A DNA stretch of 62,375 nucleotides, counting the filler, from Squatina squatina (taxonomy: Eukaryota), in the NCBI GenBank assembly GCA_031763465.1. It is 4 parts of 4 records of this genome, joined end to end, with 100 filler letters (N's around TTAATTAATTAA, not from the genome) between each part and the next. Parts side by side here need not be neighbours in the genome. Positions count along the whole stretch, not along the records: positions 19,528 to 32,952 come from JARFOE010000235.1; 3 more parts are not named here. One strand, written 5' to 3'. The notes below the pieces were generated by a model. The model ran no database searches. It saw only the letters and a program-made list of their open reading frames with translations, and was not told the DNA's origin. Positions 24,104-28,414 of this stretch are shown piece after piece; the first letter of the stretch is position 1; every line of letters starts with the position of its first letter. Both the position numbers and the translations under genes were made by a program.

Positions 24104-25869
24104 CTAACTCTTTTGCTGCTGTACCCTGTTGGCTTTGCTGGACGCCCACTTGGAATAGGCAGCTACAAAGTTGAACTCCTTGATTGAAGGCCCATGGATT
24201 GAGATCTTGATCAGGTTCTCCAGCGACTTGCTGGTCAATGAGTTCCCAAGTTTGTTCCTCAACATGTGTTGTCTGCCGAACACCCCCTCCAGATCTGCAG
24301 TGGGAATGGGCAGAACCAGGTACCGTTCCGCCAGCGAACTGACGACGGGGAACATCAGTTTCTGTTTGAGTGCCAGCTCGCACACATCCTTGACGCTCGT
24401 GAGTGCATGAACACCCGGCTGAGACTCCACAAAGTTCATGAAGCTGACCAGCTCCTGTTTGCAGCTCATCTCAAAATCGTCCTTGTCGCTCTCGTCGGAG
24501 AGTGAGGACAGGTAATCGGTCACGGTTTGGATGTGCTTGCTCTTGGAGTCGGAGGCGTGCACGGGGTCGAATATCGCAGTCATTGCCGTCATGGTGGCTG
24601 CGTCTTTGGATTCGGAGAACCTGGCCTTANNNNNNNNNNNGAGATTCTCAAGGAACGTTCTACAGGTGCTTTCTGCCTCTGTCCGCTGGCGGCGACCTCC
24701 TTTTATCCGGTGGTTCTGAAATGTAAAGGAGCCGTCAGAGAGGCCTTCATCCCACATGTTGGGCGGCAGTGCGGCCAGGAGGTTCTTGAGCATCTCACCG
24801 GCGCTTTCGGCGCTCAGCTTATTAATCGTGGTGACCGTCGACTTCAGTAGTGGGTGCACAATTGAGAAGTCCACATTGGAGGTCTGGTAACTTTTACACA
24901 GAATGTACAGCTGGTGGAGAATGTCAGCCAAGAAATGACTACAGTGCAAAAATTTGTAGGTGCACATAGTCTTTGCCAATCCGATACCTCTGGCGGACCG
25001 ACTGTTCTGGAGCACCGAGACGAGGTTGCCAAAGTTGCGGATTACAGCTTCAACCGACGCTCTAACTGTAAGCCACCTGGATGGAAAGATATCCCTGAAC
25101 GGGCTGCTCTGTTTGTGTGTGTCTCTGAGTATTTTTTGCATGGCCTCGAGCCCATCCCTGTTCTTCGGCAAATCAACAAAGTGTTTATAAACAGAATCGA
25201 GAATCTGTTGGTACTTCACCAGGTAAGGGATGGTGTCTGCAGCAGACACACTGCTGAGGGCTAATCGATGAGCAATGCAGTGGATGGATAAGAGACCAGG
25301 TGCCTGTGCCTTCAANNNNNNNNNNCCGCACATCTGTTTCACGTCTAGATCTTTCTCTTTGAGCACGTCGGCTAACTCTGCCGTGATCTTATCCGCCGTG
25401 ACCTCCTCCCGCAGTTTTTTGACCGCCAAGAAGTAAGTTTTGGGCTCGTACCCTCCTGCAACATGCTCGATGATTCGGAGGTACAGGAACAGGCACGGCT
25501 CAGTGAAACAGTCTTCGGACTCATCGATCAGGATACTGAAGCAGTTACTGGACCGTGCCCTTTTCAGGATTCCCTCATCTGTTACTTCAGCGATGGCCTG
25601 CTGGAAATCCTCGATCGACTTGTCACCCTGGTAGGAGGCGAGCTTGTCCGAGTGCAGCCCAACCAGGTCAGTGAGGCCCTGAATCAAGCACAGCTCATTC
25701 AGAGCTTCTGTTGAGGAGTTGGGGATCATCTCTTTGGCTGCAAAATACACATTGCGAAGAATGCATGTTGCCACTTGCTCTGACTTTTTAAGGCATTCCT
25801 CTTGGACTCCCTTGACTGCAGTGGTGCTCTTTTTGGCAAAGTGCAGGCCTCCTTTGTAGCTGTTCTCAC
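24104..25869 (-). CDS. hAT-transposase-derived terminal exon (ZNF862/PRDM11/C17orf113-like catalytic and dimerization region)
   Basis: About 590 codons with no stop. hAT motifs ILIDESED, IHCIAHRLAL (CxxH), SRWL, PTADLEGVF and ISIHGP. Preceded by the pyrimidine-rich acceptor ttttccattctgtttcaacactttAG|GT GAG AAC (phase 1). Two short internal N gaps. Confidence 0.88.
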
Positions 25870-26142
25870 CTAAAGTGTTGAAACAGAATGGAAAATACAT
25901 ACAGTTAAAACCATCATGGAGATTCTGCCTCGTGATGGGCTGCGGGTTCCGTGTGCGTTGGATATCCTGCAAGGCCTTGCCCAAGGGGCTATTCATTATG
26001 TGTGAGTCTGGACCATTAAGCCTAGGTTTTTGGGACTGCAGTNNNNNNNNNNNNNNNNNNNNNNNNNNNNNNNNNNNNNNNNNNNNNNNNNNNNNNNNNN
26101 NNNNNNNNNNNNNNNNNNNNNNNNNNNNNNNNNNNNNNNNNN

Positions 26143-26345
26143 TTGAAAGCAAGGATGAGAATTTTAAAGCTGAGGCTTGGCCGGACCAGGAGCCAATGTA
26201 GGTCAGCGAGCACAGGGAGGGCCTTGGACACAGGCAGCAGGGTTTTGGATGAGCTCAAGTTTATGGAGGGTGGAAGGTGGGAGGCAGGCCAGAAGAACTT
26301 TGGAATAGTCCAGTCTGGAAGTAACAAAGGCATGGATGAGGGTTA
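26143..26345 (-). mobile_element. L2-clade LINE fragment
   Basis: PVLADLHWLLVRPSLSFKILILAF motif in the ORF track. Confidence 0.8.
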
Positions 26346-26599
26346 CAAATGTCAGCAGTCAAATCAGGCTACGAGTCCAAAACACTAAAAGGGAAATTTT
26401 ACCTTTTAACGAGGGAGCCTTGTCATTGTTACAGCCTAAGATAAGTACTCTGCCCCCTTGGCATCCGACTGTGATTGGTGCGCCTGCCTTTACTGCACAG
26501 CCTGGCTGATTATTCTAGCCATTTATCACCCTCTACGTGATGAAGTTCCTTCNNNNNNNNNNCCTTCTGCAATCCGACCGAAATTTATTTTTCCCCAGT

Positions 26600-26800
26600 T
26601 TCAAATTTGACCTCTGCTTCCATCATCCTGCCGTATTGTAAAGTAATATTTAGGATTTTCCTTATCTAAGCCATTTAATACTTTATATACTTCAACCAGA
26701 TCCCCCTTAACCGTCGTCTCTTTAGACTGCAGTGGCTGAGCTTCTCTAAATCTTTCCCCATAACTCATTCCCTGTACTTCTGCAATCATTTGCAGCGCTC
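26600..26800 (-). mobile_element. Old CR1 LINE fragment
   Basis: GMSYGERFRE...GDLVEVYKVLNGLDK motif. Confidence 0.7.
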
Positions 26801-27232
26801 TATTTTTAAAGGGCATCCTTTTATAAAGTGAGGAATAAATCAAATCGTAACAATGAACTTCAAGGAGAGTGTAATGTGCTGGGTTCCAGGCACCTCCAGA
26901 TCAGTGGAACTTAATGACCCTTCTCCGTGTTCCCAGTCCACTCCTGTATATACACAGGAATTTTTGCTTATACTTTTCGACGATCTTCCGGTACACTTCC
27001 CGGCGTGCACATCCTGCTGGTTTATGGTAGGGATCGTCCAACCTGCCACACTGGGGCCATGATACAACCCTGCCATCTGGCAATCCAGCCGTTGAACCCA
27101 GGCAGCACNNNNNNNNNNNNNNNNNNNNNNNNNNNNNNNNNNNNNNNNNNNNNNNNNNNNNNNNNNNNNNNNNNNNNNNNNNNNNNNNNNNNNNNNNNNN
27201 NNNNNNNNGATCAGCAAAATTAAATATCGTAC

Positions 27233-27689
27233 CCGTCCACTGGTCACTCGTCCCCCTGTATTCGTTCTTCTCCTTTGGCGTGCGCTTGTAGGCCAGGTTG
27301 TTGCGGTTCTTCCACCGGCACAGCCACCCGTTGGTGGGTTTGAACTCGATGCCCATCTCCTCGGCAAGGGCCTTGGCTTTGGCCATCAGCACTGGCCCCG
27401 AGATCGGGCCTTCCTCCTTGCTGGCCGTCCAGAACCAGCTCAGCAGAGCATCGTCAATGGTCTGGTTCTTCCCCTCACGCTTGCGCTTGCGTTCCAGGTT
27501 CCCACCGCGCAGCCATTCCTCCAGAATCTCCTCTTTCTTCTTGACGATTTTGGAGATGGCGGAGGCAGTGAGCCCATACTCCCGGGCGATCTCCTTCTGC
27601 TTGAAGGAGGGGTCGTTGAGCTTCAAGATGATCTGGACTTTCTGGGCCAGCGTGATGGCGGTCCTTTTGATTTTGATCGGGTTCTCCAT
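27233..27689 (-). CDS. pogo/Tigger (TIGD/CENP-B-type) bipartite HTH DNA-binding exon
   Basis: MENPIKIKRTAITLAQKVQII..KEIAREYGLTASAISKIVK (psq-type HTH), then IDDALLSWF...PISGPVLMAKAKALA...FKPTNGWLCRWKNRNNL (CENPB HTH). Acceptor tgttgcAG| at 27696, 7 nt before the ATG; candidate phase-1 donor G|GTACGA at 27233. Confidence 0.88.
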
Positions 27690-28414
27690 ACCAGCACTGC
27701 AACAGCACAGAAACGGCAGAGAGTACAATAGCGTGTTTATACAAAGAGAGCCTCTAAACTCCTAGCCATAATCCACCCTTTTTGAAATGCCTGACAGGCA
27801 GTGTGGTTGTATACTGGGTGTTTTTTTTTTGTTGCTGTTGTGCGAGGAGTCAGGCAGCATTTACAGCACGGGCATAATGGAAGCTAACAGGCTCCAATGT
27901 GGCTGCTCGCAGAATGTAGAGAAAGAATGTGCTTCTCAGCCTGTGCTGCACAGACCAGGAACAAAGAGGTCTGTGAAACGTGAAGTTGATGCTGAGCAGG
28001 CTTTAGGGATGTGCTTTGTGATGTAAAATAAGTGATCTCATCTGAAATTCGACACCACAGCCCAGCCCTGATAAGATCATCTCCAATTTGCTGACGCGCA
28101 CTTATGATCCTCGGCAGACATTGATCTTATCAGCCACCAGCGGTGCGTAAGGGAAACAGATTGTGGTTTCTTCACAAAAANNNNNNNNNNNNNNNNNNNN
28201 NNNNNNNNNNNNNNNNNNNNNNNNNNNNNNNNNNNNNNNNNNNNNNNNNNNNNNNNNNNNNNNNNNNNNNNNNNNNNNNNCGTGTCTTCTATTGTGGGGG
28301 AGCAAGAAAAGGAGAGGCACTGAATCCAAGCTCAGACAACATGTCACAGCCATGGTTGGAGACCCAGAGATACATGGAGCAGCAGGTCTGTTGAGAAATG
28401 CAGGTAAAAGAGCA

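Follow-up and report, generated by a model that had tools for sequence, protein, structure and literature searches.

A number of vertebrate genes have been derived from pogo transposases, and those that descend from pogoR (TIGD3, TIGD4, TIGD6 and CENPB) carry an N-terminal pair of helix-turn-helix (HTH) domains, CENP-B_N plus HTH_Tnp_Tc5. The same pair is encoded on the minus strand of a 62,375-nucleotide (nt) stretch of Squatina squatina DNA (NCBI GenBank assembly GCA_031763465.1), hereafter the window, in the part that comes from JARFOE010000235.1, but the shark gene differs from the pogoR-derived genes in having no DDE_1 domain, a multi-exon linker and a hAT transposase C-terminus, and among the hits examined it occurs only in cartilaginous fish. 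All 12 vertebrate pogo-derived genes described in the accessible part of Gao et al. 2020 (PMC7386202) have kept the DDE domain, and hAT and shark go unmentioned in its main text as far as that was accessible. On the other side of the comparison, the hAT transposases of the zf-C17orf113 type, together with the genes that have been given names after them (C17orf113-like, ZNF862-like and KIAA1586-like), have the same hAT body as the shark gene, which is 35-40% identical to copies of the bivalve type, but the free relatives have a zinc finger and some have terminal inverted repeats (TIRs), whereas the shark exon begins right behind the position of the finger and has no TIR. The finger of C17orf113 and ZNF862 is likewise absent from the shark gene, whose nearest rows are bivalve elements; the human proteins lay outside the comparison, so that the case for non-orthology is an indirect one.

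One precedent for a gene of this kind is SCAND3/ZBED9, which unites SCAN, integrase and hAT parts. The nearest found in the literature is that of ZMYM1, ZMYM5 and ZMYM6, in which, according to the accessible part of Kojima and Jurka 2011 (PMC3212892), a hAT transposase forms the C-terminal part of duplicates of a Crypton-derived family; this is a partial precedent for the shark swap, but those genes are eutherian only, have ZMYM2/4-like N-termini, have lost the Crypton DUF3504 and do not combine two transposase domains. The host-transposase fusions of Cosby et al. (bioRxiv 10.1101/2020.05.07.082677) share capture by splicing, purifying selection and the logic of a DNA-binding domain (DBD) with a repressive module, but that survey, in the part accessible, set out from the annotation of tetrapods and admitted only fusions with a host domain, whereas both folded domains of the shark gene are transposase-derived. 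The accessible parts of PMC3424704 and PMC13548663 contain no matching case, and literature searches, whose scope excluded the supplements (Gao 2020 Table S2, Cosby Table S3) and most subscription papers, yielded no description of a shark pogo-hAT gene.

The sequence-only reading of the window had proposed a domesticated chimera of a pogo/CENP-B double HTH and a hAT body, and this has held up, with joined models in 10 of 20 species, purifying selection and a single clade. On sequence evidence it is a gene conserved in cartilaginous fishes that is predicted to encode a pogo-type DBD, a linker of six modules and a hAT body without zinc finger.

Exons, linker and joined models

The first coding exon (27233..27689, minus strand) encodes a pogoR/TIGD3-type double HTH of 152 codons plus one base, starting with an ATG at 27689 and ending after 27233 at a phase-1 donor (G followed by GTACGA, the GT at 27232-27231); the start, the 152 codons, the double HTH and the phase-1 donor had been proposed beforehand and were confirmed by reading the sequence and by Pfam (CENP-B_N, E 1.3e-10; HTH_Tnp_Tc5, E 4.7e-11). 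The solved DBD of CENP-B, 1hlv, is also matched (E 2e-13). The exon ends just past a conserved Trp, the one that in pogo transposases stands ahead of the DDE domain, and it is at this residue, close to the donor, that the similarity of the HTH half gives out. The last coding exon (24104..25869, minus strand) follows an AG and pyrimidine tract ahead of 25869 and holds a hAT transposase body, the frame of which runs for 587 codons to a TAG at 24104-24106 with no stops and with two short N runs as its only breaks. It starts at the point where the zinc finger of the free relatives ends, and the N-terminal finger (BED or zf-C17orf113) is absent, as had been claimed. The further claim that both parts lack TIRs was also borne out, there being no convincing pair flanking the gene in 23800-28300 (the longest arm had 21 nt at 71%, the best perfect one 12 nt). 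Tandem or direct repeats were considered as an explanation of the locus and rejected after repeat analysis.

The Pfam matches foreseen for the joined protein were obtained in part: CENP-B_N is present, as is HTH_Tnp_Tc5, and DDE_1 is not, but in the window Dimer_Tnp_hAT remained below its cut-off (E 0.015; 15.5 versus 21.4 bits). The hAT identity of the second exon is accepted because a profile built from it and its relatives matches Hermes (E 3e-6), because the fold also matches, and because intact hAT transposases are 35-40% identical to it. The fold was taken from an AlphaFold2 model (predicted local distance difference test, pLDDT, 75.7) of P0043, the closest orthologue of the window hAT part examined (88% identical), and Hermes is the best match (E 5e-10), with Hermes chains at the top of 12 matches at E <= 0.001; in this model the hAT body takes up a Hermes-type fold, its RNase H core and insertion domain included.

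In word-based searches chondrichthyan proteins came out on top for each half, 11 of 33 matches to the hAT half being chondrichthyan (51-87% identity, the others <=40%), as were all matches to the HTH half (10/10 and 2/2); cluster look-ups then added isoforms and species. Models joining HTH and hAT were found in 10 of the 20 chondrichthyan species with any piece, namely Heterodontus, Hemiscyllium, Chiloscyllium, Stegostoma, two Scyliorhinus, Hemitrygon, Hypanus, Mobula birostris (in which the DBD, missed by the motif test, was identified by eye) and Callorhinchus; seven of the remainder have split models and three a partial model. RefSeq holds the gene as uncharacterised, split or misnamed models (C17orf113-like, ZNF862-like, TIGD2/3/5-like, centromere autoantigen B). 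Full-length models are 1,096-1,101 amino acids (aa) long, with ~346-348 aa between the HTH and hAT domains, and DDE_1 is absent from all six that were scanned with Pfam. In the relatives a pogo DDE domain behind the HTH exon and a separate zinc-finger first exon for the hAT part were both sought and neither was found.

Four sequencing runs of relatives (X1, X2, X3 and X6), putatively RNA although none of the runs listed is recorded as such, were aligned to window 23850-32500. Two contigs, X3 record 15 (5,519 nt) and X2 record 9 (1,800 nt), align to both exons and carry between them 1,040 other letters which, with four overlap bases, make 1,044 nt in frame, or 348 codons, the length of the linker in the S. 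canicula model; X1 and X6 gave short unbridged pieces only. Domains on separate spliced exons, as in a captured-transposase gene, are thus indicated by the X2 and X3 contigs, which represent one putative RNA sample, and by RefSeq isoform models.

The interval between the exons in the window (25870..27232, minus strand; 1,363 nt) is where the six linker modules are expected, and it contains three N runs (210 N), two of them gaps of 100 N. No linker module was detected in the window by tblastn, and the best match of a linker profile had an E of 1.4. Since the interval holds these two gaps, it is most likely that the assembly lacks the modules. The N runs of the window are evidently unsized, because a run of 10 N in the hAT exon corresponds to ~58 bases (~48 extra) in a relative's contig. 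The sequence-only reading had the two exons spliced directly from 27233 to 25869 to give ~740 aa, and this part of it is not supported, since the bridging contigs place 1,044 nt between them, the full product is ~1,100 aa, and none of 17 joined models has the direct splice, each containing from two to six linker modules. That the direct product might still be the main one in Squatina squatina, its linker exons having been lost, would be consistent with compatible phases and with the lack of a detectable module in the window, but the gaps are unsized, and modules 2-6 are present in Heptranchias, which among the relatives with a linker model is the nearest in its hAT part, so that this is most improbable. 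No such joint was among those listed for the contigs, a listing dominated by repeats; the direct splice is in frame and might occur as a minor isoform.

The linker comprises six modules of 44-68 aa, 348 codons in all, with boundaries taken from isoform deletions and from the points at which truncated models diverge, and the modules would be phase-1 cassette exons. Modules 2 and 4 resemble one another with a score of 94, and 6 of 15 pairs score above all 1,000 shuffles, which suggests that the linker may have arisen by tandem exon duplication. No Pfam family matches it. An alignment of 16 linkers shows no variation in 42 of its 351 columns, APLDL and SSSDE among them. PLDLR, which is taken here to be a CtBP-type binding motif, occurs in 15 of the 16 linkers, the chimaera model being without it, and psi-K-x-E, presumably a SUMO-type site, occurs in one to three copies in every one.

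A number of observations weigh against a single joined gene. The models of five species (Mustelus, Heptranchias, Narcine, Leucoraja and Amblyraja) are split between linker modules 1 and 2 and those of two others elsewhere; the join in Callorhinchus exists only in an older RefSeq version, the current one being linker-only; and the bridging contigs represent one sample of another species, the RNA nature of which is guessed. It could be, then, that there are two tandem transcription units (HTH with module 1, and modules 2-6 with the hAT body) that are sometimes joined by read-through splicing, the fusion being a minor product in many species, and for Heterodontus and S. torazame there are indeed models of HTH-less isoforms (P0042, P0047). 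However, joined models span sharks, rays and chimaera in 10 species, the bridging contig has all 348 linker codons, and the ends of the HTH-side split models are mutually unlike, as intron read-through predicts. Two units are accordingly thought improbable. In all seven split species (the five above with Rhincodon and Mobula hypostoma) both halves share the longest contig size, and in some the accessions of the halves are neighbouring.

Conservation, phylogeny and nearest relatives

Conservation is very uneven along the protein. Between Heterodontus and Callorhinchus the DBD (residues 1-135) is 98.5% identical, the hAT body 71.6% and the linker 58.9%; the DBD is 99-100% identical in other sharks and 90-92% in two stingrays. 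Synonymous changes make up 22 of 28 coding differences, as against an expectation of 22% (all changes) or 34% (transitions only), with p <= 2e-6, a crude count rather than a codon-model ratio of non-synonymous to synonymous rates (dN/dS), and one that draws on the 28 coding among the 40 differences shown of 515 in total. A FastTree phylogeny was built from 93 hAT bodies that span >=470 profile positions, without redundant isoforms, and in it the 15 rows from chondrichthyans group together as a single clade (support 1.0, stem 0.62), each species contributing a single lineage to the rows used. The chimaera branches first, followed by batoids and sharks, which is roughly the species phylogeny, some inner shark forks being weak; the window row clusters with Pristiophorus, and the sister clade contains Mercenaria, Crassostrea and other sequences. 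These comparisons of sequence indicate that the gene has been inherited vertically under purifying selection.

Outside the chondrichthyans the closest DBD found is that of a paddlefish protein which is also without DDE_1 (59.5% identity over 131 aa), whilst the nearest DDE_1-bearing relatives are at 47-49% (P0159 from a newt; P0195, named TIGD3-like). The paddlefish genes LOC121328321 and LOC121328477 (P0103, P0205) are unlike the shark gene in having no hAT part, the likeness stopping at Trp151, and in keeping a TIGD-like C-terminal helix pair. The two Polyodon proteins are paralogues on equal-sized contigs; their DBD is of the pogoR type, and their DDE domain is replaced by short repeated helical motifs. 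They would be either the second case of a domestication lacking DDE or ancestral to the shark gene at its 5' end, and the DBD tree left the paddlefish fork open.

When 1.84 billion cluster representatives were searched with a profile, there were 8,216 matches, and among the best 150 of these no protein outside Chondrichthyes joined HTH to hAT (0 of 141 new representatives, 10 being HTH only and 131 hAT only). That the chimera pre-existed as a free transposon was rejected, none of the 141 new proteins among the best 150 matches having both domains. The HTH profile had no match in 11 scored non-chondrichthyan hAT proteins, and the sole HTH-like match at 41 hAT loci, in L012, lay on the other strand. 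When metagenomes were scanned with the full-length alignment, no relative was found among 442 pattern matches, and the Atlas returned generic Tigger-like clusters for the HTH part and only leads below 0.9 for the full protein.

The zf-C17orf113 finger was found in the free hAT relative P0019 and, among seven open reading frames (ORFs) at hAT loci, above the cut-off in three and below it in two more. Six of the loci (L003, L005, L006, L012, L017 and L033) are members of a hAT family that has multiple copies in one public assembly, the inverted repeats being of 16 bp and CAGGG type and the zinc-finger transposases ~700 aa long, and this family looks to have been recently active; paired 16-bp TIRs lie ~2.5 kb apart at L006, L012 and L017, and an 8-bp target duplication at L006 was inexact. 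Other unusual arrangements were also encountered. In seven proteins (P0082, P0098, P0099, P0104, P0106, P0111 and P0204), four of which were looked up and one of which is from Biomphalaria, CENP-B-type double-HTH units stand in tandem, 3-6 to a protein, and DDE_1 is lacking. A teleost protein with a hAT body (P0181, XP_068177895.1, from Antennarius), the N-terminus of which resembles the leaders of fish zinc-finger genes, is possibly another hAT capture.

Flanking sequence and other features of the window

Upstream of the first coding exon a conserved stretch (27690..27963, minus strand) is covered by contigs of X1, X2 and X3 that run unbroken across 27696 to 27904, 27963 and 27946 respectively. 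A putative acceptor at 27696 is thus crossed by the contigs of the three runs, so that the HTH exon extends further 5' in those relatives; the stretch is probably the 5' untranslated region (UTR) of the HTH exon, or else a retained intron. At the other end, 23899..24103 (minus strand), to which X3 record 15 (from its letter 1781) and X2 record 8 align, is probably the start of the 3' UTR, and a relative's contig runs ~1.8 kb past its aligned part at the hAT 3' end.

N runs are numerous across the whole window. Three gaps (19428-19527, 32953-33052 and 46337-46436) consist of 44 N, 12 letters and 44 N, the 12 letters reading TTAATTAATTAA in two of them; such gaps are a sign of artificial contig joining, and order and distances in the window may have been imposed by scaffolding.

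On the same strand as the gene, and 3.3 kb downstream of the hAT stop, there are two HP1/CBX1-like exons, at 20612-20786 (Chromo match, E 9.8e-7) and at 19773-19867 (by motifs), which are taken here to belong to CBX1; a motif search of the window did not reveal the first coding exon of this gene. CpG-rich stretches were noticed by eye at ~35000-35400 and 30600-30800, with the promoter-like motifs AAGATGGCGG (twice), GCGCATGCGC and CCGGAAG, and no contig of X1, X2, X3 or X6 covers the stretch at 30600-30800. On the plus strand a 600-codon ORF with 19 C2H2 zinc fingers (40279-42081) is preceded by long degenerate tandem repeats from ~35570. A 127-codon frame on the minus strand (56144-56527) has EHSY followed by a coiled-coil-like stretch, presumably the pattern of a THAP-protein C-terminus; it has no Pfam match above cut-off, and a motif search revealed no THAP domain.

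Proposed function and origin

An important consideration in assigning a role to the hAT body is whether it could still be catalytic. In the window the first catalytic Asp (D1), CxxH, the RW motif and the third acidic residue (Glu3, here E) can be read, the position of the second Asp (D2) coinciding with the 10-N gap of the hAT exon. Among 19 chondrichthyan hAT rows, D1, CxxH and W are invariant (19/19) and D2 is present in all 18 readable rows. Of the 18 rows that can be read at the third acidic position (the frameshifted tail of Hypanus being dropped), three have Glu3, namely those of the window, Heptranchias and Callorhinchus, one has Asp and 14 have other residues; among free hAT relatives Glu3 is present in nine of ten. 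A complete D-D-E triad with CxxH and W is not, then, a property of the chondrichthyan rows as a whole, most of which have lost Glu3. The accessible part of PMC2533014 indicates that the Hermes mutations E572A and E572C abolish all steps, and that of PMC4763223 that DDE mutants of Kat1, a domesticated hAT that is still catalytic, are inactive, E895A included. A conserved nuclease function seems unlikely because Glu3 is lost in most rows and mutants of that residue in Hermes and Kat1 are inactive.

A more specific proposal is that the pogo DBD has retargeted an active nuclease or recombinase, hAT chemistry being aimed by that DBD at least where the three acidic residues persist. The invariant residues, the presence of Glu3 in three rows, a Hermes fold that appears intact in the model and the example of Kat1 (PMC4763223, in part) are all in its favour. 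However, 15 of 18 readable rows have another residue in place of Glu3, the Arg that follows this position is kept only in Callorhinchus, the context of D1 has drifted (DQSHS and DLPRD as compared to DESTD), the Arg of RW has been lost in three rays, and a linker of 350 aa separates the DBD from the catalytic core, so that such an activity is very doubtful.

The product is judged, with some reserve, to repress transcription in a sequence-specific manner and not to act as a nuclease, a reading drawn from sequence comparison and for which the evidence consists of the domain order, the bridging contig, selection, a species-like tree, the loss of the DDE domain and of the finger, and the loss of Glu3 in most species. 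The near-invariant double HTH would read a fixed DNA motif, PLDLR and the SUMO-type psi-K-x-E sites of the linker would recruit co-repressors, with cassette exons tuning the number of motifs, and the hAT body would serve as an oligomerising or DNA-clamping scaffold. A prediction of a two-copy complex of P0043 residues 25-125 scored 0.01, with the alignment unused and the fold uncertain. The repressor reading has to contend with a number of difficulties: the chimaera model is without the PLDLR module and some ray isoforms leave it out, a literature search on PLDLR with CtBP gave no support, only an unrelated listing, and the retention of D, D, CxxH and W, together with Glu3 in the window, is unexplained by a pure scaffold role.

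An alternative is that the gene is a convergent analogue of CENP-B, its double HTH binding the DNA of satellites or centromeres, or else the ends of transposons, and its hAT body oligomerising so as to organise heterochromatin. The best solved relative of the DBD is CENP-B (1hlv), the layout of DBD, acidic linker and inactive transposase core echoes that protein, and HP1/CBX1-like exons lie downstream in the window; moreover CENPB is a mammalian domestication (PMC7386202) and independent CENP-B-like genes exist in fission yeast (PMC3424704), as given in the accessible parts of those papers. Set against this, a DBD conserved at 98.5-100% throughout the class would fit a fixed motif better than fast-changing satellites, the DBD is nearer to TIGD3-like proteins (47-60%) than to CENP-B, the motifs of the linker are those of transcription factors, and a neighbouring CBX1 has been observed in just a single assembly with many gaps. 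The analogy is therefore regarded as unlikely.

The gene would have originated before the split between chimaeras and elasmobranchs, when a pogoR transposase was cut short by a phase-1 donor behind its DBD and became spliced, by way of phase-1 exons duplicated in tandem, to a hAT element further downstream, the acceptor lying immediately after the zinc finger of that element. That split took place ~400 million years ago. Such a gene extends what is known of transposase capture and opens no new process. There is a slight chance that it is the cartilaginous fishes' own CENP-B-like organiser, silencing repeat or centromeric DNA alongside the product of the neighbouring HP1 gene. The near-frozen DBD points across the class to a specific DNA target, in a lineage that lies outside the main tetrapod-based surveys, and the gene represents a natural and long-lived exchange of DBDs between two DDE transposon superfamilies in which the donor behind the pogo DBD and the acceptor behind the hAT finger can both still be read.

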